Under the pieces are notes generated by a model. The model was not told the origin of the DNA and did not search any database. It saw only the letters and a program-made list of their open reading frames with translations. DNA of 27,774 nucleotides from Erysipelotrichaceae bacterium (GTDB lineage: Bacteria > Bacillota_I > Bacilli_A > Erysipelotrichales > Erysipelotrichaceae). Where the stretch lies: positions 1-27,774 of the forward strand of contig CAVAAT010000026.1 in NCBI GenBank assembly GCA_963586925.1, given 5' to 3'. The position numbers and the translations under genes were made by a program. This document shows, one piece after another, positions 8,204 to 27,774 of this stretch (positions within the stretch are counted from its first letter, which is position 1; each line of letters opens with the position of its first letter).

Positions 8204-8247
8204 AGGCAAAATTGCATACCCCGGGGGGTGAAATTTCGCCTTTTTTT
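8204..8247 (+). terminator. Hairpin plus T7 tract downstream of the transposase stop (putative terminator inside the IS right arm)
   Basis: AGGCAAAATT ... AAATTTCGCCT forms an imperfect stem enclosing a CCCCGGGGGG core. TTTTTTT follows at 8241-8247. Confidence 0.4.
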
Positions 8248-8267
8248 ACCTTTCAAACTGTCAAAGA

Positions 8268-8412
8268 TAAGAATTTCAAGAACTATTTTATGTTTTTTAG
8301 ATTTAGCATAGGAAGTATAATCAATGATATTAAGATTAACATTTAGCATCAATTTCTCGCAATCACACTTTCGATTAACATCATCTCTGATCTCGCATAT
8401 TTTCTTTTTCAT
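8268..8412 (-). pseudogene. 5' fragment of the IS-disrupted LRR/HExxH paralog
   Basis: ORF 8179-8412 reads MKKKICEIRDDVNRKCDCEKLMLNVNLNIIDYTSYAKSKKHKIVLEIL and then runs into IS-derived sequence, stopping at 8179. NIIDYTSYA resembles the LRR unit KIEDYAFCY of the intact paralog. No SD precedes ATG 8412, so the original start is uncertain. Confidence 0.45.
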
Positions 8413-8491
8413 CCAAAAGATTATTTATAAATATTTTCAAGAAAAATGTGCATTAGTTAAACAATGACCTTTAGTTTTAAACTTTATTTCA

Positions 8492-10849: not shown

Positions 10850-10851
10850 TT

Positions 10852-12024: not shown

Positions 12025-12052
12025 AGTTCCTTGCCTCCTTACCTACCTAAAA

Positions 12053-12115
12053 TTAAAGGCAGCACGTTGATATACATAACCTTAATTTTTGGTTTAGTCT
12101 ATTAAACATCATCAT
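12053..12115 (-). CDS. Possible 20-codon small ORF (MMMFNRLNQKLRLCISTCCL) in the only sizeable intergenic gap of the operon
   Basis: A GAGGGAGG SD (12120-12127) sits 4-10 nt upstream of three consecutive ATGs (12107-12115). TAA lies at 12053-12055. There is no comparative support, so this could be a leader peptide or spurious. Confidence 0.2.
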   Translation of the reverse strand: MMMFNRLNQKLRLCISTCCL

Positions 12116-12142
12116 GCTACCTCCCTCATTTATTGTGTTTAA

Positions 12143-12709
12143 CTAATATAATCCGCCAGAGATTGCTTCTACCAACTCATTACAACATTCTGATAGATCG
12201 ATTTTCCATTCTCCATCAACTTTTATCAAGTTAAGTTCCACTAAATAATCAACATCATCTGTTTTCTTTCTCTGTTCTGTAACTAACTTTTTCAGTTCTC
12301 TTTCTATCTGTTTTTCTGATTTACCATCGAGACTCATTGTCAATATTTTAGTAGGAACTAAAACCACCAAATTTGACACTATAACCTCCCAATTTTCCGT
12401 CGTGATTTTTACTTTAACTGTAGCATAATCACCATTCACTTCTTTATCAACCACTTTATATTCGAAATCCATGATATATTCAGAAATTATGTCTCCAATA
12501 TAATCTAGTGATTCACATTCTTCAATAATGTCAATAAAATCATGAATAACTGAATCTTGAGGATCTCCAAAGTACAATTTGTCTAAGATCTCTTCATCAC
12601 ATTTTCTGATCCCTTTGAATAAAGCTTTTGTAGTCCCATTAACAGAACTGCACCCTGTTAAACTAAAAACCATACAGACACTTAATAACAAGCATATTAA
12701 TTTTTTCAT
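12143..12709 (-). CDS. Small secreted lipoprotein (NTF2-like / DUF4878-like fold suspected)
   Basis: Signal peptide plus lipobox: MKKLICLLLSVCMVFSLTGC. The mature part contains GDYATVKVKITTENWEV ... LIKVDGEWKIDL, which is typical of small NTF2-like lipoproteins. An AAGGAGA SD precedes it, 5 nt after the upstream gene. Confidence 0.75.
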   Translation of the reverse strand: MKKLICLLLSVCMVFSLTGCSSVNGTTKALFKGIRKCDEEILDKLYFGDPQDSVIHDFIDIIEECESLDYIGDIISEYIMDFEYKVVDKEVNGDYATVKVKITTENWEVIVSNLVVLVPTKILTMSLDGKSEKQIERELKKLVTEQRKKTDDVDYLVELNLIKVDGEWKIDLSECCNELVEAISGGLY

Positions 12710-12714
12710 ATTAT

Positions 12715-13677
12715 TTATTCTCCTTCTATTTCACCACAATAATCAACTGGCAGTGGCCTCGTGGCATTTTTAAATGGACTATCCTTCAAAATAGATTGAT
12801 TCTTAATAAGATAAGCCGTTTTAAATCTCTTATAGCCAGTAGATCTTTCACTATTTTCCCCAGACATCAATATATCTTGTTTTACTGCCATTTCTTTATC
12901 ACTGACCATAAAGAAGTATTGTACCGTTGACCATAATGCCATACCATCATATAACTCATTAACAAGTTTTCCATAGCTCTTTTTGATTTCCTTTTTATTC
13001 CAATTAAGATATTGCCATATATGAGTTAATTGATATACCGTTTCAATCAACGCTTGAGTTCTAGGGTAATCCTTTTCAAAGTATAATAAGAAATGATTTT
13101 TTTGCCACAACACCAATGAATTGATCTTATGGTCTTTTGTATTTGAAGGTATCAATTGTTTTCCAGCTTTTTTTAATAAAGTGCTTTTATCAATTACCTC
13201 AATCCTTATATCTCCATTAATACTAATGCCAAAAAAGTTTTCCATATTTCTTTTAGCATCTTCTAACATAAGTCGATAATCTTTTTCTTCAATAAGTGAT
13301 GATCTATCACAATTAGTACACTTTGTCCTGCCATCTACAGTTAGTACAAAATCATTTCCCATTATATCTTCACTACAAAAATCACACTTTCTAGTTTGAC
13401 TATCATAAGGTTTAAAAACCTCTTTAATCCTATTTGCAGAGATCTTGTTTTTTCTTGCTTGCTTCAAAGGATTATTACCATACCCATTAGCGACAAGAAA
13501 ATTGCGTGTTTCTAGTGGAACTATCCTTTTTGGAAGATCCGATTGACCATAATGAATATATGCTTCTCTAAAAGCTGAAATTCCATTCACATCGGTAAAC
13601 CCCCCCACAGAAAATGATTTTTCTGATACTTTTTCCTCATTTTGTTCTTCTTTTTTATCATTCTGTTCCATCATCAC
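12715..13677 (-). CDS. Zinc-ribbon protein with a DA1-like peptidase-type module whose HExxH is degenerate (YQLTH)
   Basis: 320 aa. A CxxC ... CxxC zinc ribbon is present (C98-D-F-C101 ... C120-T-N-C123). Downstream, FEKDYPRTQALIETVYQLTHIWQYLNW ... LYDGMALW aligns from memory with the DA1-like ...lp..l.g.ilAHEmmHaW ... EGfc motif, with His-to-Tyr and Glu-to-Gln changes. The track start at 13677 is GTG. ATG 13674 or 13671 after the GAGGTGA SD is equally likely. The gene overlaps the upstream gene's end by about 14-20 nt. Confidence 0.55.
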   Translation of the reverse strand: MMMEQNDKKEEQNEEKVSEKSFSVGGFTDVNGISAFREAYIHYGQSDLPKRIVPLETRNFLVANGYGNNPLKQARKNKISANRIKEVFKPYDSQTRKCDFCSEDIMGNDFVLTVDGRTKCTNCDRSSLIEEKDYRLMLEDAKRNMENFFGISINGDIRIEVIDKSTLLKKAGKQLIPSNTKDHKINSLVLWQKNHFLLYFEKDYPRTQALIETVYQLTHIWQYLNWNKKEIKKSYGKLVNELYDGMALWSTVQYFFMVSDKEMAVKQDILMSGENSERSTGYKRFKTAYLIKNQSILKDSPFKNATRPLPVDYCGEIEGE

Positions 13678-16600
13678 TCACCTCATTGTCATCCACCACG
13701 CTATTTAATTCATCATCTTTGACCTGTTCAATTGAATTTGTTTCATTTTCCATTTCTTTAGAAGTCGAATGTTCTTCGTTTTCATCAATGAATTCTTTAT
13801 CACTATTTAAAGGTTGCTCTTTTTCTGTCTTACCAGTTTCTTGCTTGCTCCTATTTTGTTCAGATTGTTCTTGAACTGAATCATTTATCTTTTCTATATC
13901 TTGCTTTGATGGATCTATTTCTTCGCTAGATTCTGCATTATCTTTCTTCGATTGTTTTTCCTTAAATTTATCAAAGAAACTCTTTTTCTTTGGTTGTTTA
14001 GGTCGAGAAATGTTTACTGGTTCAATTAAAGTTTCTTCCTCTAGATCAATATTGCCATTTTCAGCCTTATCTTTCATTTCAAGATACCAATCAAGATAAT
14101 CGCAAATGATCTCTAAAATACGATCAATATTTCTTTCAACTGTTTCTATTAATCCAATGTCCAATTGACTATCTTCTACAATATAGATAGCATTCTCTTT
14201 CAGAATATCTTTTTGTTCACTTACATCATAAATCATATAAGTCAATGGTCCATTTTCCTCGTAAGGCACGAAAGTTAGAGACTCATAATCTTCATCTGTT
14301 TGAAAGGAAGTTAAGGCAACAATATAAGCACTATCTTGAGCAAACATTGTTCTAAAGATTTCATTCATCAATAAACAGATCGTGTATGAAATATTAGCAT
14401 TTTCTTTATATTCTGCTGATTGGTCAAATGACAAAGTCAATATACGTTTATTAACATAATGCCTCTCAGGTACAGACTCATTATCTGTATCAAATAAGAC
14501 TAAAGTTGATTCATTAATCTTGTTATAATGTTTCATCTTGTAATAACCTTGAGTCTTAACAGTAAAATCAGCATATTCACTTCCTAAAGTAATCTGATTG
14601 ATCTGTTTACTGTCTTTTCCTTTAGTCGACTTTGCAAATGATTCAAAGCCATAATCTCTTATCTGACGATACTCATAACGATCATCAATATGATCTGCTG
14701 ATCTTCTTAAGATTATTTCGTTCTGGGCAGATAATCTAACCATTTGATAATATTTGCCACAACGTGTAATAAACTGGCCAGGCAAAGTCTTTTGGAATAC
14801 TTGCGACACTAATTCAGTTCCTAAATAATTACCTTTTTCATATTCATCCTCTGCGACATAAGAAGCCAAATGCAAATCTGAAACAAATGCTTCAATGAAG
14901 TCTTTATTATCAATTGAATACAGATTATCATTCTTACCTTCTTCAAAGTTATATTTTTGACTGATCGATATTACATCAATATCAAATTCTTTACCATTCT
15001 TTTCTATTATTCTATTAGATACTTCTTCTACAGCTTTCTCATATTCAGAAGGCAAGTCCTTTTCTATAGCAGTACTAGTAAAGCACATGTAAATCTCATA
15101 CCATAATTGTTTCTTGATGTTTATAGCCTTTATACCAATAAGAGAGAATTCATCAACTATTTCTTTTTCGTAAACAGGATGATCGCTCATCATAAAGATC
15201 ATTGATAAAGCGAAGTTCCTATTTGTCTTAGCATAATCAGCTACGAAATTAGGAATAGCTTTTGGATCACTTAAAAATATATTGAAATTCCAAGCCATAT
15301 AATCCCTTAACAAATAATCAGGACAAATAACATTGACAAATCCTTGAGAAATACTTCTAGTAGAAAAATCCCTAACTAGTTCAAACAAGTTATAAACTTC
15401 ATCTTCTACTGTCAGATAACTTTCATCACTAATAGGGGCATCCCAATAGCCATTAGAAGTAACAAACTTCTTATCAATCAATCCTTGTTCACTCGGTAAA
15501 TCAGCATAAACTGCTAAGTCATGGTAGTATTGTTTAACGATCCACTTCATATCTACTACAGGGAACATCTCTCCCCCATACCATTTAGTCTGTGGTATCT
15601 TATTTTTAAGAGCACTAAATGATAATTCCGTACCAATACCTAAATATCTAGAAATATTAGCTATCATCTTATGGTGCATATATTCATCAGTACTACGCCA
15701 ACACATATATGAAACTGTACCTTTATGTTTATTTGTGGCAGATACTTTGCTGATAGAATTTAATAAGATGTGCGACATGGCATCAACAAGGCCATCACAA
15801 TTTTTCTCCGTCAAGCAATATACAAGTTTCTTTTCTCTATCTTTCCTTCTGCATTTTTTAATGATAAGATTCAAACCAATTTGAGCTGTTGTTATTAACT
15901 TACTTGGCTCAATAATAAAAACAAATTCCACATCTTCAAAAAATTCTTCATTATCTTGCATCAATTGTAAATCTGTTACATCAGATCTATTGATGATACC
16001 GATATTACCATCAAAACCTTCTTCTTTCAGATTACCAATTTTCCAAAAATAAGGCAGATTAGTCACCGATTTAACTCCTTCTTCCAACCATCTTACGATG
16101 TCATCTTCAATACCGTGTCTTCCTAATACAACCAACACCTTTTTATTTGCTAATAGGCTTTGCTGCATAGGATAAAAAGCATAAGGAATTAAATCATGAT
16201 AGAAAGGATCATTGAATAAAATACTTTTTCCTTGTAATAATTCTAATGATGATTGAAAATAATTTTGATCTAATGATAAACCTTTTTGCACTTTCTTTTT
16301 GAAAAACTTAGCAAACATCCTAATTTTATGATCATTACTTTTCTCATATTTTCTAAGTAATTGTTCTGCTGTTAATCCCTGATAAGAAGTATTTGAACTA
16401 GTTCCTTCACTTACCACATTATCTTTAAATAAAGAGTTCAATACTTTTCTCATCAATGAATAATTAACTGAGACTTTAACACCATTTTCGTCATCGTAAA
16501 CTTCTTTTAAGAATTCTTTCTTAGTCAAGCCATCTATAAAGAAGAACATTTCTCCTAACATAATGATCGAATAAGCTGGAATAAACACATAACTAAGTGA

Positions 16601-17137
16601 ACCATCTTCAACTAAATACTTTGTTATTGTCATTAAGATTAGACTAATAAGCAAACATGACCAATAAGCAACTTTAAAAAGTTTTCTAGTCTCAATTCTA
16701 TCTTCACTTAAAAACCAACAACCACGTTCACTATCATATTGGTAAATATTACAAGATATCTTTTCCATTAGATGATTATCTAACTTAACTATCTTTTTCA
16801 TGATAGCAATAGCAATCCCCTTAATAGTAATAAATACTAACAAGATTAATAAACAAATGATAAAGTCAATCCAAGTATCCCAATCTACCGAACGAATAAA
16901 GGAATCTATAACATCAATGAATTGTCCAATAGACCAATCAATTAAATTTAATAAGATGTTTCTTAATTTATGAACACAAAAAATAACTACAATAACGTAA
17001 ATACATCCAATAAAAGGCATCAAAAATTGCTTTACTCTTTCCTCTTGTGACAAATTTATCTTTTTTATCCACATACAATGGAGAAAAATCACTAACAACC
17101 AAGATCCTATTTTTAAAAACTCAATAATATTGTCCAT
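13658..17137 (-). CDS. Large polytopic membrane protein of unknown function (1159 aa) with an acidic disordered C-terminal tail
   Basis: About 5 N-terminal TM helices (e.g. WLLVIFLHCMWI, FIGCIYVIVVIFCV, FIICLLILLVFITIKGIAIAI, AYWSCLLISLILMTI, FIPAYSIIMLGEMFFFI) precede an ~800-aa soluble region with no motif I recognise. The last ~125 aa are K/E/D/S/Q-rich low complexity. A strong GGAGGAAA SD is present. The start overlaps the upstream stop by 17 nt. Confidence 0.8.
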   Translation of the reverse strand: MDNIIEFLKIGSWLLVIFLHCMWIKKINLSQEERVKQFLMPFIGCIYVIVVIFCVHKLRNILLNLIDWSIGQFIDVIDSFIRSVDWDTWIDFIICLLILLVFITIKGIAIAIMKKIVKLDNHLMEKISCNIYQYDSERGCWFLSEDRIETRKLFKVAYWSCLLISLILMTITKYLVEDGSLSYVFIPAYSIIMLGEMFFFIDGLTKKEFLKEVYDDENGVKVSVNYSLMRKVLNSLFKDNVVSEGTSSNTSYQGLTAEQLLRKYEKSNDHKIRMFAKFFKKKVQKGLSLDQNYFQSSLELLQGKSILFNDPFYHDLIPYAFYPMQQSLLANKKVLVVLGRHGIEDDIVRWLEEGVKSVTNLPYFWKIGNLKEEGFDGNIGIINRSDVTDLQLMQDNEEFFEDVEFVFIIEPSKLITTAQIGLNLIIKKCRRKDREKKLVYCLTEKNCDGLVDAMSHILLNSISKVSATNKHKGTVSYMCWRSTDEYMHHKMIANISRYLGIGTELSFSALKNKIPQTKWYGGEMFPVVDMKWIVKQYYHDLAVYADLPSEQGLIDKKFVTSNGYWDAPISDESYLTVEDEVYNLFELVRDFSTRSISQGFVNVICPDYLLRDYMAWNFNIFLSDPKAIPNFVADYAKTNRNFALSMIFMMSDHPVYEKEIVDEFSLIGIKAINIKKQLWYEIYMCFTSTAIEKDLPSEYEKAVEEVSNRIIEKNGKEFDIDVISISQKYNFEEGKNDNLYSIDNKDFIEAFVSDLHLASYVAEDEYEKGNYLGTELVSQVFQKTLPGQFITRCGKYYQMVRLSAQNEIILRRSADHIDDRYEYRQIRDYGFESFAKSTKGKDSKQINQITLGSEYADFTVKTQGYYKMKHYNKINESTLVLFDTDNESVPERHYVNKRILTLSFDQSAEYKENANISYTICLLMNEIFRTMFAQDSAYIVALTSFQTDEDYESLTFVPYEENGPLTYMIYDVSEQKDILKENAIYIVEDSQLDIGLIETVERNIDRILEIICDYLDWYLEMKDKAENGNIDLEEETLIEPVNISRPKQPKKKSFFDKFKEKQSKKDNAESSEEIDPSKQDIEKINDSVQEQSEQNRSKQETGKTEKEQPLNSDKEFIDENEEHSTSKEMENETNSIEQVKDDELNSVVDDNEVSDDGTE

Positions 17138-19172
17138 ACATTTCCTCCATCTGCAGAGTAACTTTATCTACAAATTCCGATGGTATTTCAACATGATTAT
17201 CTTCTTGTAGATAACTGATAGTTGAAGTACCCATTATCATCTTCATTTCGTAATGATATTTGATCTTTTTAGTGTAATCATAGCCAAAAGGATCTTTATC
17301 ACCTTTAACTTTGATCTTATCTAAAGGACTTAGATAATGATCATATTCACTATAAATCTCGCTTAGAACTTCATCCAAATCCTTCTTATGTTTACTTAAA
17401 ATAAATAACAAATTAGTTGCTTTCTTACCAAAATAGTTGATTATACCATTTAGCCTCATGATAGAGGCATTTTTGGAAAGATAACGACTTGCCAAGATTA
17501 AGCTATCATAGATAGCACTAACTATATTACTGATAGTCTTGTTAAACTTTTTAAATAGTCTTATAAGTAAGTACTTGAATACAAGTAAAGTAACAAATAA
17601 CACAACAACAAATATAATGATAGCTACTAGTGCTAATGATATATATGACCGAACATCTTCTCCATCAATAAAAGCATTTAATGGATAAACACTTACTCCA
17701 AATGAAAACAATAAAATCAGAATAAGAGAGAAAATGATCGTTGGTCTTTTATTCATTCTTTGATCAATCCTAGCTCTGATCTCATTATCAGCCTCATCCA
17801 TTTTCTTACTATAGTCATCGAAGTCTAAAATATCTTGAGGATCAATCTCAGATAATTGTTCTTCTACACTGATGAGTTTATATTCAACATCTTCACATTG
17901 ATATTCTGTAAAATCAGCAATCCTTTCATCATAATAATCCTTTTTTACATAGAAATTATCTTTAACTTTTGTTTTTACTGCTCTTTGAGGTTGCCTCATA
18001 TACTTAATGAACTCTTTATGAATGGAATCAGATTGTTCATTCCAATATTCTTCTTCACTTTCTGGACAATCTTGCGATAAACCAATACGGTCATGTTCAC
18101 AATACAAACCATCCTCACCATATTCTTTATCAATCTCACAAACGATAGTCTCATCTTTTTCAAAAAGAGTCTTAAAATCATTTCTTTTTAGATGAGTTGC
18201 CTTTTTGTTTAACTCTTGTTTTTCTAACGATTCAATACTATTTTTAGCTGATAATAAATCAGAAACAAAATCATCACATTTTTTTAACAAGACATCTTCC
18301 TTTAGTTTTATATCCACTTTGTAGACCTTGTAAGGTTTAATAGCATCATTAGGATATTCATTAGTCGCTAAGATATTGATCAAAGTACAGAAAGGCAGAT
18401 TATTTTTACTGATCCTAATTTTTTCATGATTATATTCAACATCAAATAATAGGAATCTAACATTATGAGGATATAAGTTATTCTCGACAAAGTTTAAATA
18501 CTCATCTTTATGTATTTCACTATGCCAAATACCAATCTCCTCACAGTAAACTGCTCTTTCCGACAATACTGTAACATTCTTAGGCAAGTTTTCGAACAAA
18601 CAATCATTATTTTGAGCGATAATCTCTTGTGTAATTTGACTACCATATTGCACTCTAAAACTATTAGCACTTACTGCTAATCTAGTTGGATCATCTTCCT
18701 TATCCTTTAACTCTTCTCTTATTTCATTATCAGCTAATTCTTCTTCGACTCCAAAAAAATTTACATAAGGCCTCATGAGCCAATTGGTCAATCTGACCAA
18801 CGGCTCATTTGACACTTCATGAATGATTTGTTTGGCATTGTTGTAATAATTGATCACATCGTCAATAGTTTTCAAATCTTCCAATTTTTTTTCAATTTGA
18901 TCATGCATGCTATATAGATCAAAAGGGTTGCCATTGACACATTCAGTAAGAGCGATATTGGCAATGCCGAAAGTATTCAATATTAGCACACGCCAATCTC
19001 TCTTATCAGCGATAGTCTCTCTTAGCTGGGGTACTGCCATATCAATATTTGTTCCTTCCTTATTCCAAGACAAGAAAACAACTTCTTCACTAGAAAATGA
19101 ACTTAGAAAAGCGTTATATTTAGTTTTACAATCATCGATAATCTTCTTATCGCAGATAACTACTGTAAACAT
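17121..19172 (-). CDS. Membrane protein of unknown function (683 aa)
   Basis: It is a long ORF in the operon frame. Two TM helices lie in the C-terminal third (TIIFSLILILLFSFGVSVYPL; ISLALVAIIIFVVVLFVTLLVF). The ~470-aa N-terminal soluble region has no recognisable catalytic motif. The SD is weak (AAAAGAG), and the gene starts 18 nt after the tubulin-like gene's stop. Confidence 0.75.
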   Translation of the reverse strand: MFTVVICDKKIIDDCKTKYNAFLSSFSSEEVVFLSWNKEGTNIDMAVPQLRETIADKRDWRVLILNTFGIANIALTECVNGNPFDLYSMHDQIEKKLEDLKTIDDVINYYNNAKQIIHEVSNEPLVRLTNWLMRPYVNFFGVEEELADNEIREELKDKEDDPTRLAVSANSFRVQYGSQITQEIIAQNNDCLFENLPKNVTVLSERAVYCEEIGIWHSEIHKDEYLNFVENNLYPHNVRFLLFDVEYNHEKIRISKNNLPFCTLINILATNEYPNDAIKPYKVYKVDIKLKEDVLLKKCDDFVSDLLSAKNSIESLEKQELNKKATHLKRNDFKTLFEKDETIVCEIDKEYGEDGLYCEHDRIGLSQDCPESEEEYWNEQSDSIHKEFIKYMRQPQRAVKTKVKDNFYVKKDYYDERIADFTEYQCEDVEYKLISVEEQLSEIDPQDILDFDDYSKKMDEADNEIRARIDQRMNKRPTIIFSLILILLFSFGVSVYPLNAFIDGEDVRSYISLALVAIIIFVVVLFVTLLVFKYLLIRLFKKFNKTISNIVSAIYDSLILASRYLSKNASIMRLNGIINYFGKKATNLLFILSKHKKDLDEVLSEIYSEYDHYLSPLDKIKVKGDKDPFGYDYTKKIKYHYEMKMIMGTSTISYLQEDNHVEIPSEFVDKVTLQMEEMYGQYY

Positions 19173-19190
19173 AGTAACACTCTTTTCTTA

Positions 19191-22100
19191 CTACTGTGAT
19201 TCCTTAACTAAGTTATCAAAATATGCAACATCAGCATTCTTTCTAGATAAATATGATCTAATGTTATCTTTAATAGCATCCAAAGTATCCCAGCCAGCAT
19301 TTTTCAAGATTTCTACTTTTTCATAATTATCTTGAAGAATCTTATATTGCTCCCCTGATACTTTAACCCACAGAACTTCAGAATCGTTTTTCTTTTCAAC
19401 AGTAGAGATCTCTCTCTTTAACACATACATTAATGCCCATACCATTGTTTTTAATTCATTAGAATCCTTACTCTTTGTAGGTAATGAACCGTAATATAGC
19501 ATTGGTAGTTCAAACACTGACATCTGTTCTGTATCATTAGCATCTTCAACTATTTCACTTCTCTTCATATGTGTCATTTCTGTAAAGAATTTGGTACTAT
19601 CATATTTAGTAGGCTTTGCTGCATCTTTTGAACGGAAACCTGAGGCAATATTATGAATGTCATTAACACGTTTTCTATCAAAATATAATGACTCTAATAC
19701 TTCATATAACTTGTTGCAAGTATTACCATCAGAAGTTAATAGGAAATCATTCTTATTATCGCCATCATAACAATAAGCCTTATCATTAACATTGTGTATT
19801 GATTTAGGCATTAACTTAACTGCTTTATAAATGAAGCTATAGAAGAATGCTTCGTGAATATGACCCATTAACATCTTTTGGAAATCAAGGTTCATTTCTG
19901 GCATTACCGAAATCGAATTCCATTTTTTATCAATATGTGGAGTAATAACTGGATTTAATGTTGAATCTGGCCCAATATCTTCCATATATTTCTGATAATT
20001 TTTGAAATATTCACCTGAATCTTCTGAATATAATCTTCCATCAGATTCTGGAGTAACATATTTTAAGGCACTAATATCATCAGGAGTTAGACCATAATTT
20101 GATCTAAAACAATGGATCTCATATTTAGAAATAGAAGAAGTTTTATTTTCCTTATCTAAATAATCTTTGAAATCTGAAATATTGATGTTAGGATCATCAT
20201 CGTTAACACCTGCACCATAAGACATTTCAGAAACTTCTCTATCTTCTTTGATGTTAGCAATTGAAAGCATAGGAGCAGCTAATGTCCTTAGTTCTTTTAA
20301 GCTATCATTGATATACTGATTTCTAATATTTCTATCATTAGCATTCTTAATGATAACTTCTTTTTGATCTTCATCTTTTTCTTCAGAAGTTTTGATCATT
20401 TGATTTATCTCAAATTCATATTTTAAACCATGTAAGATATCAAGATTGATCTTATCATCACAGCTATTAGAAACTTCCTTCTTATAGTCTTCTATTATAA
20501 CATCGTTAAAAATATCTTTATATGCTTCTAACAGTGAAGGATTTCCATCTTTCTTTTTAGATATCTCAGCATTCTCTTTAAATGCTGTAAATAAATCGGC
20601 AAACATCCGCGAATTATCAGCTGTACTAGTCTGTAGTTCAACAACTTTATTTAACATCTTTTCGCTCGAAAGTATATTTTTAACACAATCTCCTTTTTTA
20701 TATTCAATCTCGCCAACCAATTCTTTTTTTCTCTTCTCAATTACCGGGATTTTGCTTTCAAATGAATTATAAAACTTCTCAATTTCTTTGATCATAGGAT
20801 TGACATATTTTAATCCTTCTTCACATACTTTTCTCTTTACTATTGCTTCAGATCTTTCGTTGACTACTTTAAACAATTTTTCTAATAGTTTTTGTGCACG
20901 ATTACTACAATTATGATCCACTAATTTAACCCAGAAATTAGCATTTTCACATTCACGCACCATCTGACTAAGATTTATCTCCTTTTGACCATTTCCCTTA
21001 ACTTGAAATGATTTGGTTTTATTTTTATCATCATCTTTTCCTGCATAAATTTCATTGTACTTTTTTATATACTCATCATCGCCAGAAGATGTGCTATTCA
21101 CTTCATCATCCATTAAATTTCTTAATTTATAAAGAACTGCACGAAGTGCATTTGGATGCATAATGTTATCCGAACCTATAGAAACCAAATTCTCAAATGA
21201 ATAATTTCCTATTTCCAAATTTTGTGAGAATGTACCAGTGGAAGCCATTGCCTTTTTAATAAAGTTTTTTGACAACTCTTTGATCTTTTCATTCTTTTGA
21301 TTCATTGCATGAATTTCTTCAATTCTCTTCATTTGATTGCTAATTGGAATCTTCTTTGTTTTAACGTTATTAATATCATCGCTAGTCAGTTGAGAATCTT
21401 GTAGAATTAATGACATTAATTCCTTCTTCAAATTGATAATAAATTGCTCGGCAATCTTCTCAACTTTGTTTGAAAAAATATCATTTTCCGATTGATCATC
21501 CACGTATTTTCCGTATTTTAAACTAATACTTTTCTGAATCTCTACTCCAAAATCTGAAGTAGACGAGTCTAATCCACTGATATAAACTTCACTTAACTTT
21601 GGCTGCTCATTTCTACTGCCATTTTCATACTCTTTTAATTGCTGTTCATATTCTTTATCCCAAGCAACCCACGTATTCTTAACTAACTCTTCATTATCAA
21701 CATTTTTAACATTTCTAACACCTAAAATATTCTTTTCAGCCCAGCAATAAGCTATATAGTCCCGAATCTGTTCATAAGGATACCTTAAAACAGCTGCCCC
21801 AACTGAGCCAAATCTACTTCTTCCTAATAACTTAGGGTCAATGAATGTTTTAATGACGTTATCTTCTTGAGAAGATGCCTTTTTAGATAAAATACTGATG
21901 TTCTGTTCATAGATACATTGAGATACTGTCTTTTCATATTGAGACAAAGATTTCATAGTCTTTTGATTGTTATCATTCTTCTCAATCAAAAAGCAAAAAT
22001 CAAATGGTAAGTTGTCAATATTTCTATTTGTGCCATCAGTATTAGGAACACTTATACTTAAACCTTTGTATCTTTTTAATTCATCTGTAGTTTCAAAAAA

Positions 22101-22784
22101 ACCCGATCCTTTCATCATGAAAGCATTGATCTCTCTTAACGTAGCATAGCCATTTCTTTCTTGAGAGGCCATTTCACTTTCTGATTTTATCTTGGTCCTC
22201 ATTACTCCTGGCATAATAAAGAAACCTCGAATAATAGATGAAGATTCAGGATAATTTCTATTGATATAGTCTCTGATCAACATTGATACCTCTAAAGCAA
22301 TGCCTGAACCAGTACCACCTGTTGCAGTAGAAGCAATGACCACTTTAATAGCTCTTTGATGATCATTCCCATCTTTCAAATACAACTCGTTTATTGCATC
22401 ATATAAAGATTTAATTTTATTTTGTTTGATAGTTGCATTTAAAGCTAATCTAGATATTGCCCTAACTTGACCCGCACCCTCAGAAACTGTTTTATAATCT
22501 AAGATTCTATTATTAGGGAACCAATTATTTTTTGCTTCCTTATCATAATTCAAGTACTCTTTTATCTTTCTTGTTGATGATGTTTGAACAGCAGTTATTG
22601 GCGTTTCGCTATTTAGTCTAGATATATCATTAGTATCAGTATCCAAAACAACAAAACGCATATTGTTCTTATCATCATTCTTACATAAATCTGCTACACC
22701 TTTGATAATTCTGCCACCAATTCCTCCAACTCCAACAAATAATGTTGGAACTATCTTATTTGACTGTAACTTTTCCTTTTCCAT
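19191..22784 (-). CDS. Giant tubulin/FtsZ-superfamily GTPase-like protein (Tubulin_2-type N-terminal domain plus ~950-aa uncharacterised extension)
   Basis: 1197 aa. The N-terminal ~230 aa carry the FtsZ/tubulin nucleotide-binding loops in the correct order: T1 LFVGVGGIGGRII (aa 15-27), VVLDTD (aa 45-50), T3 SEGAGQVRAISRLA (aa 101-114), and T4 signature ATGGTGSG (aa 154-161). GGTGSG was verified at nt 22302-22319. A GGAG SD precedes it. Confidence 0.8.
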   Translation of the reverse strand: MEKEKLQSNKIVPTLFVGVGGIGGRIIKGVADLCKNDDKNNMRFVVLDTDTNDISRLNSETPITAVQTSSTRKIKEYLNYDKEAKNNWFPNNRILDYKTVSEGAGQVRAISRLALNATIKQNKIKSLYDAINELYLKDGNDHQRAIKVVIASTATGGTGSGIALEVSMLIRDYINRNYPESSSIIRGFFIMPGVMRTKIKSESEMASQERNGYATLREINAFMMKGSGFFETTDELKRYKGLSISVPNTDGTNRNIDNLPFDFCFLIEKNDNNQKTMKSLSQYEKTVSQCIYEQNISILSKKASSQEDNVIKTFIDPKLLGRSRFGSVGAAVLRYPYEQIRDYIAYCWAEKNILGVRNVKNVDNEELVKNTWVAWDKEYEQQLKEYENGSRNEQPKLSEVYISGLDSSTSDFGVEIQKSISLKYGKYVDDQSENDIFSNKVEKIAEQFIINLKKELMSLILQDSQLTSDDINNVKTKKIPISNQMKRIEEIHAMNQKNEKIKELSKNFIKKAMASTGTFSQNLEIGNYSFENLVSIGSDNIMHPNALRAVLYKLRNLMDDEVNSTSSGDDEYIKKYNEIYAGKDDDKNKTKSFQVKGNGQKEINLSQMVRECENANFWVKLVDHNCSNRAQKLLEKLFKVVNERSEAIVKRKVCEEGLKYVNPMIKEIEKFYNSFESKIPVIEKRKKELVGEIEYKKGDCVKNILSSEKMLNKVVELQTSTADNSRMFADLFTAFKENAEISKKKDGNPSLLEAYKDIFNDVIIEDYKKEVSNSCDDKINLDILHGLKYEFEINQMIKTSEEKDEDQKEVIIKNANDRNIRNQYINDSLKELRTLAAPMLSIANIKEDREVSEMSYGAGVNDDDPNINISDFKDYLDKENKTSSISKYEIHCFRSNYGLTPDDISALKYVTPESDGRLYSEDSGEYFKNYQKYMEDIGPDSTLNPVITPHIDKKWNSISVMPEMNLDFQKMLMGHIHEAFFYSFIYKAVKLMPKSIHNVNDKAYCYDGDNKNDFLLTSDGNTCNKLYEVLESLYFDRKRVNDIHNIASGFRSKDAAKPTKYDSTKFFTEMTHMKRSEIVEDANDTEQMSVFELPMLYYGSLPTKSKDSNELKTMVWALMYVLKREISTVEKKNDSEVLWVKVSGEQYKILQDNYEKVEILKNAGWDTLDAIKDNIRSYLSRKNADVAYFDNLVKESQ

Positions 22785-22805
22785 TTTTTTATCTCCATTT
22801 CTTTA

Positions 22806-25043
22806 TTATCTTTCGTATTTTATTGTTCCTTTATGTCTACCCTTATTATCCTTAAAGATAACCTCGAATCCATCTCCAATTTCAAATGATGCCTCATTAA
22901 TCTTTGTACCATCACTATTTACTAATCCAGAAACTCTTTTAACAAATCTTTCCCCATCGAATATCACTTCGGTAATATCCGATGCAACATTTATATTGAA
23001 TATCTTTGCTTTAGCATAAGAAGTCTTACGTTCACTAAATTTAGTAATTTTCTCAGCGTAACATGTTATTTTTCCGCTTTGATAAGGGAATAGGTCCATG
23101 ATCTGTCCTCTCTTGAAATTGTATCTTCCATATCCGTTTCTGTCATCCTCCATACCCAAAAATAAAGGGAATGCTTTCATATTCATCAATAATAATATTA
23201 ACAACAATAGTAACAGTAATAACAATCCTAATGCCGCCCACCTTGCCCATTTAGGATAGAACTGTATAGTGAACTCTTCACTATCACCATGTCCATAAAG
23301 GACTTGGCCATCACCATTATGTAAATAATTTGCTTTAGCATATATAGTGTTCTTACCTTTTGTTATTTCATCAGCATTTACTTCTTTACCTAAATATATA
23401 TTTACCTTTGATTCGCCATATACTTTTTCAATTGTATAAGGTATATCTTTATCAAAACTTATATTTAATTCTGTTCCTTCTAGTTGATAATCCGTCAAAC
23501 TCTTTCCATCTATTGTTAGAGTTGCTACAAATGGTTTCCAAGAATCTTTTTTACTTAGTAAGAACCAGTTATCTTCTTGTTCAGTATCTAAATGAACATC
23601 AACAGTTGGATAGCTTATTGTGATCGTATAGTCTTCTTTTCTATTCTCTGTTGTTATTTGATAATCATTTAAATAAGTAGCTTTAACTTTCAAGAAAATT
23701 GAGTTATTTGGTTCTAATGTAACTCTATCTCCATTACTTACTTCATGGAATATGCCATCATCAAATTCATATCCACCAACAAATGCCACAGGCTTTAATA
23801 ACGCCGAATTCGTAACATCTTCACCAGTTACAGAATCGATCAAGTAATAATTCAAGATGTAATCTCCTGGATATAGTTTCTCATTTCTTCCAGCTACATC
23901 TAATACTGTCCCATCCTCATCCGAAAAGGTTAACATAATATCGATATTTGGTGTATAGAAGAATAGTATCGACTCTGCATCTTCATAAGAAATCGTATAA
24001 GTTCCTGCATCACATTCACCAAATGTCACAACTTGCCCTGACAAAGTGGAATCAACTGGTGCATCAGGATAGTTAGCACTATTGATCGTACTATATTTGA
24101 TCTGCCCACTATCTGATAATATCTCGACATCTTTGCCTTCTTTATCTTTCATACCATTGATCTTAGCATTTTCACCTTGAACGAATACGATGAGATTACT
24201 CATGGAAATATCTAAAGTTAGTTGATCACCATTTAAGCGATCACTAGGCAATTGATCCCTTTGAAACATCATGTTACATATTTCAATGATATCTAACTTT
24301 AAATTTTCACTTGAATTAGACTTTTTAGTGTAGAAATTATCTGATGCATAACTACTTAAGTCAGCTGCTTCACCAATACCGAGATATACAACTTTAATAT
24401 CATCGCTTGCCAATGTTGCCAACTTTTGTCCTAATTCGCTAGTACCTAAATCATCAAATTCCCCATCAGTCAGTACTAACAACCATTTTTGTGGAGCAGT
24501 AGATGTAGTAAGACTACTGTATGCCTTTTCAACTGTACTATATGGTGTGCTCCAAGCCCTTATTGTAAATAAGTTATGTATCTTTTCAATATCACTCATA
24601 CTGCTTATCAAAATTGGATCAGTACTTCCAGCACTTTCCTCAGTAGGCTTACTACCATCAGTAGTAACTGCCCACATTGGATAAATCCTTAATTCATCAC
24701 CAGGTACCGTTCCTCTTTGCTCGTAATTTAACATTGATGCAAATATTTCCATTGCATACTTTGCACGACACCAACCTTGAGCATTGTAATCAGAATACAT
24801 TGAACCCGAATTATCAAAGACAACCGCAATGTCATAATTTTCCACATAATGAACCAATTCTTTAGAATAATGAGTTTCCTCATATTGACCTTGACTATCT
24901 TTATTAGAGTCAACATCAACTATGGTATTATTATCCACTATGGTTTGATCATCTATTTCTGTTTTCTTCTTACAACCACCAAAAGACATAAGCAAGAAAA
25001 CAGCTAATAGAATAATGAGTAATTTCTTTATACGTATCCTCAT
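22806..25043 (-). CDS. Lipoprotein-anchored, single-pass membrane vWA-domain protein (extracytoplasmic vWA plus beta-rich region, TM helix, 120-aa cytoplasmic tail)
   Basis: 745 aa. The signal peptide and lipobox are LLAVFLLMSFGGC. The vWA domain has MIDAS DNSGS (aa 77-81, verified at nt 24801-24815), later WSTPYS and LLVLTDGEFDD. A long beta-rich region follows. The poly-Leu TM helix is WAALGLLLLLLLLLILLLM (about aa 600-625), followed by a 120-aa C-terminal tail. A GGGGGAG SD precedes it. Confidence 0.85.
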   Translation of the reverse strand: MRIRIKKLLIILLAVFLLMSFGGCKKKTEIDDQTIVDNNTIVDVDSNKDSQGQYEETHYSKELVHYVENYDIAVVFDNSGSMYSDYNAQGWCRAKYAMEIFASMLNYEQRGTVPGDELRIYPMWAVTTDGSKPTEESAGSTDPILISSMSDIEKIHNLFTIRAWSTPYSTVEKAYSSLTTSTAPQKWLLVLTDGEFDDLGTSELGQKLATLASDDIKVVYLGIGEAADLSSYASDNFYTKKSNSSENLKLDIIEICNMMFQRDQLPSDRLNGDQLTLDISMSNLIVFVQGENAKINGMKDKEGKDVEILSDSGQIKYSTINSANYPDAPVDSTLSGQVVTFGECDAGTYTISYEDAESILFFYTPNIDIMLTFSDEDGTVLDVAGRNEKLYPGDYILNYYLIDSVTGEDVTNSALLKPVAFVGGYEFDDGIFHEVSNGDRVTLEPNNSIFLKVKATYLNDYQITTENRKEDYTITISYPTVDVHLDTEQEDNWFLLSKKDSWKPFVATLTIDGKSLTDYQLEGTELNISFDKDIPYTIEKVYGESKVNIYLGKEVNADEITKGKNTIYAKANYLHNGDGQVLYGHGDSEEFTIQFYPKWARWAALGLLLLLLLLLILLLMNMKAFPLFLGMEDDRNGYGRYNFKRGQIMDLFPYQSGKITCYAEKITKFSERKTSYAKAKIFNINVASDITEVIFDGERFVKRVSGLVNSDGTKINEASFEIGDGFEVIFKDNKGRHKGTIKYER

Positions 25044-25070
25044 AATAATATTCTCCCCCTATATTGCAAA

Positions 25071-25118
25071 ACAAATGTGATCACTTGTCTGTATATCATC
25101 TATTAAATATTTAAGCAA
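25071..25118 (-). promoter_or_regulatory. Candidate sigma-A-type promoter (TTGCTT-N17-TATACA) and palindromic operator-like site upstream of the vWA gene
   Basis: On the minus strand, TTGCTT is at 25113-25118, followed by a 17-nt spacer and TATACA at 25090-25095. Directly downstream is ACAAGTGATCACATTTGT (25071-25088), which contains the perfect 8-bp palindrome GTGATCAC (25077-25084). Confidence 0.3.
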
Positions 25119-25216
25119 TCTAACAAGTCGTATGCTTCTTTCATACTTTTATAAGACAATCTAATAAGCCCTTCTATCGCAAGTTTTTCATCCGACCATT
25201 CAGAATATCTTTGCTA
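25103..25216 (-). other. In-frame, protein-level-conserved continuation of the upstream ORF beyond two tandem TAG codons
   Basis: After ...WPYAGAT the frame reads TAG (25217-25219), TAG (25214-25216), then QRYSEWSDEKLAIEGLIRLSYKSMKEAYDLLDCLNI and TAA (25103-25105). This is 13/25 identical to the C-terminal tail of the decayed paralog (AEEKELVNLLIEVSCKSYKTAYDLL). Confidence 0.6.
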
Positions 25217-26725
25217 CTATGTTGCTCCAGCATATGGCCATCTTGGAAATAAACCAATCCTGCTATGAGAATCTATCCATTTTTTTGCCTCTTCACCACA
25301 TTTATCATATATGAATATCCTTTGCATGCATTCAGCAATAGTCTCAAAAACACAATTTCCTTGGTTTTCATCATTTAAAACAGCATCTTTTGAAAGTGGA
25401 CAATTTGATTGTAAACAATGAACATACTCATGAACTAAAACTGATTTTGTTAGATCTACAAACATTTCTAATTCATTAAACGAGCCTTTAGTTTTTTTAG
25501 CTGTATCACTAACTTCTTCAACTATATTATCTAAACATATATAAATATGATCTTGGTGAATACATGTGCAGTCACGAGTATTTGAAACATATACCCCTAA
25601 TAATGAATTTCCATTTATCTTTAGTGATTTGATGTTATCTAACACTCCCCTAACTCTTTTTAAAATTTTATAGTCTATTTTCTTAAATGTGCCACTAATT
25701 AATGGATCCTTTAGTTTCCAATATGCTTCAAGATTGTTTCCAGCAACTAGCCTACTTAAACATTGCTCTAAATCGTCATACAAAACTTTATATGCATTAT
25801 TCATCTTATTAGTCTCACTTATACTGTCAGAAATATCATTTATCTCATTAACAATCGCCTCTATTAGATTCAATTTGTAGTCATCAAAGTTACGATTATA
25901 CTTTTTCATTTTTCGCTTGGTTATTAATTTTACATCTAAGTTAATAAAACCAAAATCTCCAAAATAATCTTTATTTATGAGATCGCTAATTGGGGAAACT
26001 GACTCTATAATATCTTCATAAAAATCAAAATCAGGAAAAAACATGTCCCCATAACACTTCCCCTTCCCAAAAGGGAATACGGGCCTTCCTATATATGAAC
26101 AAAATATAAGTTGCAAACAGTCAGCATCATAAATATTCGCTCCTCGTTTTTGTTCAGCATAAAATCTTAGCTCTATCATTAATTTTGTATTACTCTTAAC
26201 ATTTTCAGGAAAATCAATCTTATCAAATTCTAGTTTACTACAACCATAAAACGCTTTTGGTGATATTTTAATATTTTTATTTGCTTCAGAAAAATCAATT
26301 TTGGTTAGTTCATCACAATAACAAAAAGCATAGTCTTCTATTTTTTTGATATTGCGCGCTACTTTAAACGAATCAACAGTTTTTTCACTTTCCAGGTCGT
26401 ATACTTTATCAACCCAATATAAACTAGGTATCACACTCATTGTTGAGTTAATATTGTTACATTTTATATATTCTTTCAAATCCGAAACTGTGAGATGTGT
26501 TGAAAACCAACGCAAATAGTCAGGGTATTTTTCATAAACTGATTTAAGCATTTCTTCTTGAAATACTTTAATTTTAAATGTCCTGCCACACTTTTCCTTT
26601 ATGTATGAAAGTAGCTCATCAGTAATACAGCTATCATATAGTGCATTAAATACATTTTTACTTGGTTTATTATAAGTATATGAGTCATTTTCTTGTTCTA
26701 AAATTTTTCTGATTATCTCATCCAT
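25217..26725 (-). CDS. BspA-type LRR plus HExxH zinc-metallopeptidase-like protein (intact paralog of the 5030-8412 pseudogene)
   Basis: 502 aa. The LRR_5-like units are KIEDYAFCYCDELTKIDFSE ... ISPKAFYGCSKLEFDKIDFPENV. HEYVH is at aa 432-436, verified at nt 25418-25432. The C-terminal FPRWPYAG motif is conserved. A strong GAGGGAG SD precedes it. Confidence 0.7.
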   Translation of the reverse strand: MDEIIRKILEQENDSYTYNKPSKNVFNALYDSCITDELLSYIKEKCGRTFKIKVFQEEMLKSVYEKYPDYLRWFSTHLTVSDLKEYIKCNNINSTMSVIPSLYWVDKVYDLESEKTVDSFKVARNIKKIEDYAFCYCDELTKIDFSEANKNIKISPKAFYGCSKLEFDKIDFPENVKSNTKLMIELRFYAEQKRGANIYDADCLQLIFCSYIGRPVFPFGKGKCYGDMFFPDFDFYEDIIESVSPISDLINKDYFGDFGFINLDVKLITKRKMKKYNRNFDDYKLNLIEAIVNEINDISDSISETNKMNNAYKVLYDDLEQCLSRLVAGNNLEAYWKLKDPLISGTFKKIDYKILKRVRGVLDNIKSLKINGNSLLGVYVSNTRDCTCIHQDHIYICLDNIVEEVSDTAKKTKGSFNELEMFVDLTKSVLVHEYVHCLQSNCPLSKDAVLNDENQGNCVFETIAECMQRIFIYDKCGEEAKKWIDSHSRIGLFPRWPYAGAT

Positions 26726-27019
26726 ACTATTCTCCCTCTAATAATTATTGTCGAGTTTATCAAGTGTAAATATCTATTATGTTTCGCTAAATAGTCAAAT
26801 CACAACGATAAATGTTTCTCACATCATATGTAAACACTAAATCTCTCCAACTTATTGAACTTCCATTTCAAATATGCTTTGCCATAATAAGCCCTCGCTC
26901 TAATAATTTTTCTCAAGTCAACGCAAGATACCTTATATATCTTCTAGGAATTGTCCATGATTTAGCATTTTATATCATTACATCATTTAATTAGTTAGAT
27001 CAATTTCCTAGATCATTGT

Positions 27020-27045
27020 GGTGCATTAAGTATACTTTTATCACC
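27020..27045. repeat. 26-bp quasi-palindromic site A (GGTGCATTAAGTATACTTTTATCACC); candidate serine-recombinase binding or crossover site
   Basis: It has internal dyad symmetry: outer GGTG/CACC arms plus a perfect AAGTATACTT core, with 18/26 positions self-complementary. It is 21/26 identical to site B, which lies 126 bp away in direct orientation. Confidence 0.45.
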
Positions 27046-27145
27046 ATCCCTGTGCTGCATATATTTTAGCATACTTTTCCAATTAAAATGGCTTTATTTT
27101 AGAAATATGGAACATTTTACATAAATATGTCTTAGCTTTATTGCT

Positions 27146-27171
27146 GGTGCTCTAGGTATACTTTAGTCACC
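27146..27171. repeat. 26-bp site B (GGTGCTCTAGGTATACTTTAGTCACC), overlapping the recombinase stop codon
   Basis: It is a direct repeat of site A, and similarity extends about 36 bp including flanks. It spans the last codons and the stop of the recombinase gene (stop at 27163-27165). A weaker third copy lies around 27064-27085 (TTTAGCATACTTTTCC). Confidence 0.45.
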
Positions 27172-27774
27172 ATTTTCTTTTGATTCATCATCTTCTTTAA
27201 TCCATCTTAAAAAAGTCTTGTGAGATACATTTAGCTGTTTAGCAGCAACTCTACAGGATATTTCTTTGCAGATGTATTGTTGTTTTACTTGTTTAAAGTA
27301 TGTAGGCTTCTCTTTTGCTTTCCTACCAAACTTTACTCCTTTTTGTTTAGCGATAGCTATGCCTTGTCTTTGTCTTTCTCTTATCTGTTCTCTTTCTGTT
27401 TGAGCTACATAAGATAATAGTTGTAGTACGATATCTGCAATAAGGGTACCAGCAAGATCTTTGCTATTTCTTGTATCTAATAGAGGCATATCTAAAACAA
27501 TGATGTTAGCTTTCTTCTTTTTAGTGATGATAGACCACTGTTCTAATATCTGAGAGTAATTTCTTCCTAATCTATCAATAGATAATATGTATAGTTCATC
27601 ATCTTTCTTTAATCTCTTTAGTAATTTCTTATAGTTTGTCCTTTCAAAGTCTTTGCCTGATAACTTATCAGAATAGATATTTTTTTCATCTACACCATTT
27701 TCTAACAGCAATCTTATTTGTCTATCTTGATTTTGATCAATGGAACTTACTCTAACATATCCATATTTATTCAT
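27163..27774 (-). CDS. Small serine recombinase (resolvase/invertase family)
   Basis: 203 aa. The catalytic N-terminus is YGYVRVSSIDQNQDRQ. Conserved SIDRLGRN and E-helix motifs are present. The C-terminal HTH is ISCRVAAKQLNVSHKTFLRWIK. The start codon is the last three bases of the window, so its upstream region is not visible. Confidence 0.9.
   Translation of the reverse strand: MNKYGYVRVSSIDQNQDRQIRLLLENGVDEKNIYSDKLSGKDFERTNYKKLLKRLKKDDELYILSIDRLGRNYSQILEQWSIITKKKKANIIVLDMPLLDTRNSKDLAGTLIADIVLQLLSYVAQTEREQIRERQRQGIAIAKQKGVKFGRKAKEKPTYFKQVKQQYICKEISCRVAAKQLNVSHKTFLRWIKEDDESKENGD

Follow-up and report, generated by a model that had tools for sequence, protein, structure and literature searches.

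An FtsZl1 (Tubulin_2)-vWA cassette with a degenerate zincin and a RyR-TIR neighbour in an Erysipelotrichaceae bacterium

Results

The stretch of DNA analysed here, referred to below as the window, comprises 27,774 nucleotides (nt) of contig CAVAAT010000026.1 from assembly GCA_963586925.1 of an Erysipelotrichaceae bacterium. It is AT-rich, with a GC content of approximately 31%, and nearly all of its genes lie on the minus strand, where eight packed genes, all of them intact open reading frames (ORFs), form a run from position 25043 down to 8492. The run is opened by a gene for a 745-amino-acid (aa) protein with a vWA domain (22806-25043, minus strand) and a gene for a 1197-aa tubulin-like protein, a predicted GTPase (19191-22784, minus strand). 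The two ORFs are 21 nt apart, and both their coordinates and this gap are exactly as given in an earlier reading of the same DNA (hereafter the original prediction). We find that the locus is almost certainly a Clostridial member of the FtsZl1 (Tubulin_2)-vWA cassette. Cassettes of this kind have been known bioinformatically since 2010, and the window holds a further member.

The original prediction had assigned the N-terminal domain of the 1197-aa protein to the tubulin/FtsZ superfamily, and profile searching bears this out: the Tubulin_2 profile (PF13809) scored 186 bits, where the cut-off is 27 (E 1.5e-54), with aa 15-351 aligned to positions 1-353 of its 356. The Tubulin profile PF00091 stayed below threshold, with 26 bits against a cut-off of 33 and a match confined to aa 15-90, and no FtsZ_C, Tubulin_C or other Pfam C-terminal domain was matched in the protein. 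The protein carries the GTP-loop motifs GVGGIGG (aa 18-24), DTD (48-50), SEGAGQ (101-106, with GAG at 103-105) and GGTGSG (156-161), the residues of which are invariant across 28 full-length homologues sharing 35-94% identity. Alignment with hhalign pairs these four motifs with the T1, T2, T3 and T4 loops of Escherichia coli FtsZ, the sequence of which was entered by hand, and ends after T4/H4; the canonical order first proposed for T1, T3 and T4 is thus confirmed.

The predicted fold agrees with this placement. In an AlphaFold2 (AF2) model of the protein, with a mean predicted local distance difference test score (pLDDT) of 77.5, a mixed alpha/beta core extends to approximately residue 353 and the remainder is almost purely helical. 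When this model was compared with the PDB using Foldseek, the top 50 matches came from the tubulin superfamily only (gamma-tubulin, CetZ, FtsZ and TubZ), with a probability of 1.0 over 280-390 aligned columns, and among these 50 no other fold surfaced for the helical part; a profile search against PDB sequences returned only low-complexity or chance matches and none that was meaningful. We place the tubulin/FtsZ-like core at aa ~13-353, followed by an extension that is helical in the model from residue ~337 to the end. A long extension had been noted originally, but it measures ~845 aa rather than ~950. It is conserved over its full length in the 28 homologues, with many invariant residues. 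Within it, at aa ~941-978, lies an invariant ITPHIDKxWNSISVMPE...H cluster (H950, D952, E963 and H977), which falls in a low-confidence loop of the model and might bind a metal or contact a partner.

An exhaustive HMMER search of the tubulin-like family over 1.84 billion cluster representatives returned 1,321 representatives at E<=1e-3 and 308 at E<=1e-30. Since most of the latter 308 measure 1050-1280 aa, a length of ~1,200 aa is the norm of the family; the protein, described at first as giant, does have 1197 aa but is of ordinary size for its kind. In the plasmid collection we found two distant FtsZl1 matches only, one of them a 5.5-Mb record, and in the phage collection one unannotated 9.8-kb 'Bacteriophage sp.' contig only; the family is not typically borne by plasmids or phages. 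The protein shares with FtsZ, TubZ, PhuZ, CetZ and the tubulins the fold of its first ~350 residues and the T1-T4 loops, but it differs from the canonical members in its sub-threshold PF00091 match, in lacking FtsZ_C and Tubulin_C, in a T6-H7-T7 region that cannot be aligned, in its 845-aa helical extension and in having membrane proteins as partners. Neither a TubR-type DNA-binding adaptor nor a division gene was detected in the cassette.

The partner protein lies at the detection limit of its own profile, with Pfam VWA (PF00092) scoring 22.3 bits on the 745-aa sequence, just below the cut-off of 23.8. Weak VWA profile matches were obtained in 7 of 21 relatives, and a precomputed PF00092 match exists for about 30 of the 120 homologues listed, some of which NCBI names 'vWA domain-containing protein'. 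The residues of the metal ion-dependent adhesion site (MIDAS), D77, S79, S81, T166 and D193, are invariant in two alignments, of 21 and 28 homologues, in keeping with the intact MIDAS that had been proposed for this protein. A profile search against PDB sequences gave no meaningful match. In a Foldseek search with an AF2 model of the protein (pLDDT 82.7), the best structural match was the SpaC pilus adhesin (E 2.6e-10), followed by bacterial and archaeal vWA proteins (4fx5), ANTXR2, TRAP and integrin I domains; the vWA-domain matches had a probability of 1.0 and target TM-scores of ~0.6 over ~200 residues.

The vWA protein is either a type-I membrane protein or a lipoprotein. Its modelled layout begins with a signal peptide at aa 1-24, which appears as an N-terminal signal helix and ends in a lipobox (FGGC, aa 21-24), and continues outside the cell with a disordered linker (23-66), the vWA domain (~70-260) and a beta-sandwich stalk (~274-594). 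A transmembrane (TM) helix at 598-621 then leads to a compact all-beta cytoplasmic domain at 629-742. Among 76 full-length homologues, an N-terminal signal or hydrophobic segment is present in 72 and exactly one C-terminal TM helix in all 76, which makes the surface-exposed topology a property of the family; the cytoplasmic tail measures 99-156 aa, with a median of 135. The topology originally described (lipobox, ectodomain, TM helix and a tail of about 120 aa) is therefore found in the window protein, but the lipobox occurs in only 14 of the 76, the window's included, most relatives having an ordinary Sec signal peptide instead, and the tail is modelled as a folded domain.

A pattern scan covering 185,579 species, each represented by a single genome, confirmed 216 relatives of this subfamily. 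We compared 83 loci, 80 of them from the one-genome-per-species contigs and several more obtained by exact-protein look-up, and identified the neighbouring genes by calling ORFs with a script and comparing them with the proteins of the window. The locus records come from Clostridia, Oscillospiraceae, Acutalibacteraceae and Lachnospiraceae, with a few from Erysipelotrichaceae or unclassified Bacillota, and the sources that are named are gut or rumen samples. In 78 of the 83 loci, the gene immediately upstream of the tubulin-like gene encodes the vWA protein, and the five loci without a vWA gene are contigs that end less than 1.8 kb upstream, so that the co-inheritance of the two genes anticipated in the original prediction holds. 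Directly downstream of the tubulin-like gene, 78 of the 83 loci carry a homologue of the 683-aa protein encoded next in the window, and in 74 this is followed by a large protein, the missing cases being truncated contigs. The order vWA, FtsZl1, 683-aa protein, large protein holds without exception in those of the 83 loci with enough flank. The four-protein core, which is encoded by five genes in the window, is a strictly co-inherited membrane unit.

The third gene of the run (17121-19172, minus strand) encodes the 683-aa protein, which apparently corresponds to 'B5' of Makarova and Koonin and has no known domain. It consists of a cytoplasmic N-terminal domain of ~475 aa without a signal peptide, a TM hairpin at aa 475-541 and a C-terminal region of ~140 aa, and two TM helices are predicted in 73 of its 76 homologues. 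No Pfam or PDB-sequence relative was found, profile searching yielding low-complexity or chance matches only, and Pfam searches with 21 homologues gave scattered weak matches in the TM region and neither GAP1 nor SLATT. The fourth gene (13658-17137, minus strand) encodes a 1159-aa polytopic membrane protein, the N-terminal part of 'B12'. Some five TM helices at its N-terminus are followed by a soluble domain and by a tail that is acidic and of low complexity. No other part of the cassette is as strongly conserved as the soluble domain, which spans aa ~300-650 and 750-1020 and contains dozens of invariant residues, for example GRH at 339-341, NCDG at 446-449 and VEDE at 577-580. Neither Pfam nor the PDB sequences yielded a relative of this domain, a Walker A motif is absent, and the domain may be an unrecognised enzyme.

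The fifth gene (12715-13677, minus strand), which overlaps the fourth by 20 nt, encodes a 320-aa protein with a Zn ribbon and a zincin-like domain, the C-terminal part of 'B12'. In most relatives, the 1159-aa and 320-aa products are a single protein of 1400-2050 aa, and the full-length large proteins end in an acidic low-complexity linker, a four-cysteine Zn ribbon and a zincin-like domain (HELTHIWQ...YEGMA) with weak Pfam matches to DUF6055, DUF6782 and BSP. Some relatives have in addition a Transglut_core domain, either fused or encoded by a neighbouring gene. In the window, the zincin motif is degenerate, reading YQLTH...YDGMA where relatives have HELTH...YEGMA. The HExxH...E signature is intact in all 67 of the other relatives aligned and is lost only in a clade made up of the window, L084, L086 and L001. 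L086, with ~86% nucleotide identity to the window, has the same YQLTH...YDGMA motif, and L001, the proteins of which are ~55% identical to those of the window, has YELTQ...YYGMS. L084 (GCA_963621175.1, CAVFCZ010000023.1), a 99.8% identical contig found through its identical vWA protein, ends inside the 320-aa gene, and its motif is inferred from the DNA identity. Judged from these motifs, the zincin is predicted to be catalytically dead in the window's clade. The Zn-ribbon cysteines C98, C101, C120 and C123 are kept in the window protein, and for this reason a retained non-catalytic role of the zincin part is suggested.

A gene of its own encodes the zincin part in the window's clade, as in some other lineages. 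In L001, a ParA/MinD-like ATPase gene (CbiA, AAA_31; 14522-15334) separates the two genes into which the large protein is divided; no counterpart exists in the window. The replacement of HELTH and YEGMA by YQLTH and YDGMA, the division of the large gene into two with a 20-nt overlap, and the transposase at 6416-8170 beside a truncated leucine-rich repeat (LRR) paralogue could all be taken to mean that the cassette of this genome is a decaying, non-functional remnant. We regard this as very improbable, since none of the eight ORFs is disrupted, the Zn ribbon retains its cysteines, and the split also occurs in unrelated lineages with an active-looking zincin. Moreover, both the split and the dead motif are shared by L001 and L086, indicating that this state is old and maintained.

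A cassette of the same layout is listed in Additional file 5 of Makarova and Koonin 2010 (PMC2875224) for Ruminococcus lactaris ATCC 29176 (RUMLAC_01529-01526), with a vWA protein (COG2304) of 732 aa as RUMLAC_01529, FtsZl1 of 1136 aa as RUMLAC_01528, 'B5' of 678 aa as RUMLAC_01527 and, as the fourth gene, a membrane zincin with a Zn finger, 'B12'. Its likeness to the window rests on gene order, sizes and annotations. The window differs in that its 'B12' is split into two genes and has lost the zincin motif, and in that lipoprotein, RyR-domain and TIR-Sel1 genes come after the zincin. Of the genomic context suggested as new in the original prediction, the zincin neighbour itself has been known since the 2010 supplement, and only the inactivation of the zincin in the window's clade is new here.

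In the window's clade, the zincin gene is followed by genes for a small lipoprotein, a RyR-domain protein and a TIR-Sel1/TPR protein, and this gene order is shared by L001 and L086, the closest relatives, the latter having two TIR genes after the RyR gene. In the window, these genes encode a 188-aa lipoprotein with a signal peptide ending in LTGC, the product of an accessory gene (12143-12709, minus strand), a 390-aa protein with a C-terminal RyR domain (10852-12024, minus strand), and a 785-aa protein, TIR785 (8492-10849, minus strand), which combines a TIR_2 domain at aa ~163-282 with Sel1/TPR-like helical repeats; the TIR-Sel1 gene begins 2 nt past the end of the RyR gene. The RyR domain (PF02026) scored 33.2 bits against a cut-off of 27.4 and is preceded by an uncharacterised N-terminal domain, and TIR_2 scored 43.7 bits against a cut-off of 28. 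Across the 83 loci, an iterated hidden Markov model search found TIR genes in 11, RyR-domain genes in 15 and the small lipoprotein in 13, all three counts being minimum values, since core genes fill most of the 10-kb flank. The TIR and RyR genes occur on either flank of the cassette, mostly side by side.

Phage proteins with the same RyR domain (PF02026), termed RyDEP, have been reported in a 2026 preprint to bind or cleave 2'cADPR and 3'cADPR (cADPR, cyclic ADP-ribose), the signals made by Thoeris TIR proteins, through residues H75, W78, H100 and D117 (PMC13232231). The window RyR domain keeps the corresponding pocket-type residues E333-H334..W337, H359 and D376. Glu246 of TIR785 aligns with a Glu that is conserved in all ten of the other cassette-linked TIR proteins, and TIR785 matched ThsB weakly in PADLOC-DB 2.0 (21 bits, E 2.9e-5). 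The RyR-TIR pair thus resembles Thoeris and RyDEP in placing a TIR domain with a catalytic-type Glu beside a domain of the cADPR-binding type. It differs from Thoeris in having no SIR2/SLOG or Macro ThsA, as no SIR2, SLOG or Macro Pfam match of the ThsA effector type was found in the pair, and from RyDEP in that its RyR domain is host-encoded and fused to an uncharacterised N-terminal domain. By these likenesses, the pair probably makes and senses cADPR-type signals, and it could represent a Thoeris-like system, hitherto undescribed, in which a host RyR domain acts as the sensor; PADLOC 2.0 does not contain it.

The TIR and RyR context had also been put forward as new. The pair does recur, beside at least 11 cassettes, but it is not specific to them: in L087 a RyR-TIR pair without an FtsZl1 cassette adjoins a UvrD/PDDEXK gene, and in L088-L090 such a pair adjoins a RelB gene, indicating that the pair is an autonomous two-gene module. 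Standing alone in this way is what would be expected of a small defence system. We also considered whether TIR generally replaces the zincin as effector, and this is ruled out because all ten of the other TIR-bearing loci keep an intact HExxH; replacement in the window's clade alone is possible.

The intergenic spacing within the eight-gene run ranges from overlaps of 17-20 nt to a single 118-nt spacer. A promoter scan of 8000-27700 gave 129 promoter-like sites against 114 expected and is uninformative in such AT-rich DNA, and a terminator scan of the same interval found no convincing terminator between genes, a result that is compatible with a single operon without being evidence for one. A serine resolvase gene (27163-27774, minus strand) and a DDE_Tnp_1 transposase gene (6416-8170, plus strand) bracket the run, with a BspA-LRR gene also bordering it at the resolvase end. 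In L084, an ISL3 transposase gene (5908-7881) adjoins the resolvase. The whole eight-gene block may be mobile, and the genes bordering related cassettes differ between loci. Residence of the cassette in defence islands as a rule is unsupported, with few PADLOC matches among the 133 immediate flanking genes of related cassettes.

Further out on the minus strand, positions 218-4904 hold genes for a TetR regulator, an ABC ATPase and an unusually long MacB/FtsX-type permease of 1118 aa with a coiled-coil insertion, none of which has any apparent connection with the cassette. Next to the DDE transposase, ORFs of 330 aa and 88 aa (5030-6318, minus strand) represent a diverged and apparently truncated or split copy of the BspA-LRR protein (28% identity over 328 aa, E 8e-20), the 88-aa ORF matching its C-terminal end. 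The BspA-LRR protein itself, of 502 aa, is encoded upstream of the cassette (25217-26725, minus strand) and carries an HEYVH metallopeptidase-like motif near its C-terminus.

The presence of a BspA-type LRR gene adjoining the cassette, the gut and rumen Clostridia in which related loci of named source reside, and the top structural match of the receptor to SpaC, a pilus adhesin with the same combination of vWA domain and beta-sandwich, would all be in line with an integrin-like adhesion device for gut or rumen colonisation, in which the vWA/MIDAS domain would bind host mucus, plant fibre or a second cell and the polymer would anchor or cluster the receptor. ANTXR2 and the integrin I domains are also matched, and ANTXR2 likewise has its vWA domain outside the cell, joined through a TM helix to a cytoplasmic tail. 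We nevertheless consider adhesion an improbable function: it leaves the zincin, the transglutaminase-like domains and the TIR partners unexplained, the adhesin matches in Foldseek reflect the generic vWA fold, and neither a sortase signal nor a wall-anchoring motif was seen in the sequence of the vWA protein.

Discussion

The FtsZl1 family was defined by Makarova and Koonin in 2010 (PMC2875224), who found it in operons with vWA proteins that have an intact MIDAS and are often membrane-associated or secreted, noted its many membrane partners, and proposed a role in membrane remodelling. The original prediction had cited this work, including the remodelling proposal and the lack of experiments, and its account matches the publication. 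A 2023 survey of tubulin/FtsZ families set the Tubulin_2 group aside as divergent and without a reported function, and in the literature searched we found no functional study of any FtsZl1/Tubulin_2 member and no test of GTP binding, GTP hydrolysis or filament formation.

The pairing of a tubulin-superfamily protein with an extracellular vWA protein has a precedent among conflict systems. Kaur, Burroughs, Iyer and Aravind (eLife 2020; PMC7159879) described tubulin and extracellular-vWA genes in GAP1-N2 GTPase-centric conflict systems, the defining components of which are a TRAFAC P-loop GTPase bearing Zn ribbons at its N-terminus, GAP1 and an FNIII-repeat protein; a firmicute version has two tubulin and two vWA genes. 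Such an arrangement had therefore already been placed among conflict systems before the context of the present locus was proposed as new, but in a different, GTPase-containing system. The window resembles the GAP1-N2 systems in its tubulin-superfamily protein with a C-terminal coiled-coil or helical region, in its membrane-proximal components, and in its vWA protein with an extracellular vWA domain and TM segment, but it has a single tubulin gene and a single vWA gene. None of the eight proteins of the run contains a Walker A motif or has a GTPase Pfam match, and no GAP1 or fn3 Pfam match was found in the window proteins or in the 21 homologues of the 683-aa protein, although remote homology beyond the reach of Pfam is possible. 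On these grounds, the window is not a member of the GAP1-N2 group.

We tentatively favour the possibility that the cassette is a trans-envelope sensor/effector and belongs to the immune or abortive-infection type of conflict system rather than being a housekeeping cytoskeleton. A conflict role is suggested by the effector-like variability of the cassette, by its association with TIR and RyR genes, by its linkage to mobile elements and by the precedent of Kaur et al. We infer the direction of signalling, the polymerisation, the activation of an effector and the role in defence, which could be combined as follows. The vWA domain would bind a ligand or register a disturbance at the cell surface, and the signal would cross the membrane to the cytoplasmic beta domain of the receptor. 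This might set off or localise a GTP-dependent assembly in which the tubulin-like protein joins the two membrane partners at the membrane, and that assembly would then switch on an effector, which ancestrally would be the tethered zincin, joined in some relatives by a transglutaminase-like peptidase. In the window's clade, where the zincin is presumed dead, the neighbouring TIR/RyR module may take part. That the cytoplasmic tail of the vWA protein relays a binding event to the GTPase, as the original prediction envisaged, is plausible given the topology.

Integrins and ANTXR2 are single-pass membrane proteins that expose a MIDAS vWA domain at the cell surface and engage a cytoskeletal polymer through their cytoplasmic part. 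The vWA protein of the window is like them in its predicted structure, which matches ANTXR2 and integrin I domains. The analogy is one of working principle, however, with common ancestry limited to the vWA fold; the cytoskeletal partner in the window is tubulin-like, and contact between the two proteins is hypothetical. A more specific version of the conflict system, in which an integrin-like MIDAS receptor senses phage adsorption or attack on the envelope and sets off GTP-dependent build-up of a tubulin-like polymer on the cytoplasmic side of the membrane, which activates tethered peptidases or, in the window's clade, acts jointly with a RyR-sensed TIR/cADPR module, is doubtful as it stands. 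If true, it would be the first defence system built on a protein of the tubulin superfamily and would contain the first host-encoded RyR-domain sensor of cADPR.

Several observations weigh against a conflict role of this kind. At the level of the tubulin-like protein, a catalytic T7-type loop could not be identified: the search for T7 yielded a conserved S-x-E-D-N at aa 305-309 that lies inside a low-confidence loop (candidate region 299-329), and polymerisation-coupled GTP hydrolysis is for this reason hypothetical. Makarova and Koonin likewise could not align T6-H7 of FtsZl1 (PMC2875224). The cytoplasmic tail is the least conserved part of the vWA protein in both alignments, which is not what a fixed docking surface would predict. 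For the large protein, predicted TM helices number from three to six, with five the commonest, and its soluble domain may lie on either side of the membrane. Furthermore, the RyR-TIR pair stands alone elsewhere and is absent within the sampled flank from most cassettes, so that it may be a co-located independent system that is uninformative about the function of the cassette.

The genomic surroundings point in the same direction, and here they bear on the remodelling function proposed by Makarova and Koonin, in which an anchored polymer would bend, repair or bud the membrane as an envelope-maintenance machine with no immune role, and the vWA domain would grip the wall or matrix. PADLOC-DB 2.0 gave no match for the vWA, tubulin-like, 683-aa, 1159-aa, 320-aa, 188-aa and RyR proteins, NCBIfam models gave none for the core cassette proteins, and the 133 flanking genes are mostly housekeeping or metabolic, with only a handful matching defence models. 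In addition, three of the four core proteins are membrane proteins, and the tubulin/FtsZ superfamily is classically cytoskeletal. We still think remodelling rather unlikely to be the function of the cassette, because the tethered Zn-ribbon-zincin and the optional transglutaminase-like peptidases resemble effectors and not structural parts, TIR and RyR genes recur beside the cassette, its insertion site is variable and linked to mobile elements, and its distribution is sparse, with 216 relatives in the scan of 185,579 species.

FtsZl1/Tubulin_2, described sixteen years ago, is the most divergent branch of the tubulin/FtsZ superfamily. To what was known of its cassette, the present analysis adds that four proteins form a strictly conserved unit, that the zincin, judged from its motif, is dead in one clade only, and that there is a recurrent RyR-TIR neighbour, which together with the RyDEP work (PMC13232231) suggests a testable link to cADPR immune signalling. 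A co-inherited unit with interchangeable peptidase-type ends and a TIR/RyR neighbour leads to the testable hypothesis of a surface-sensing phage defence coupled to a cytoskeletal GTPase. Should this hypothesis prove wrong, the cassette would still represent, in Clostridia of gut and rumen, an unstudied link between a MIDAS receptor at the cell surface and a tubulin-like protein in the cytoplasm.

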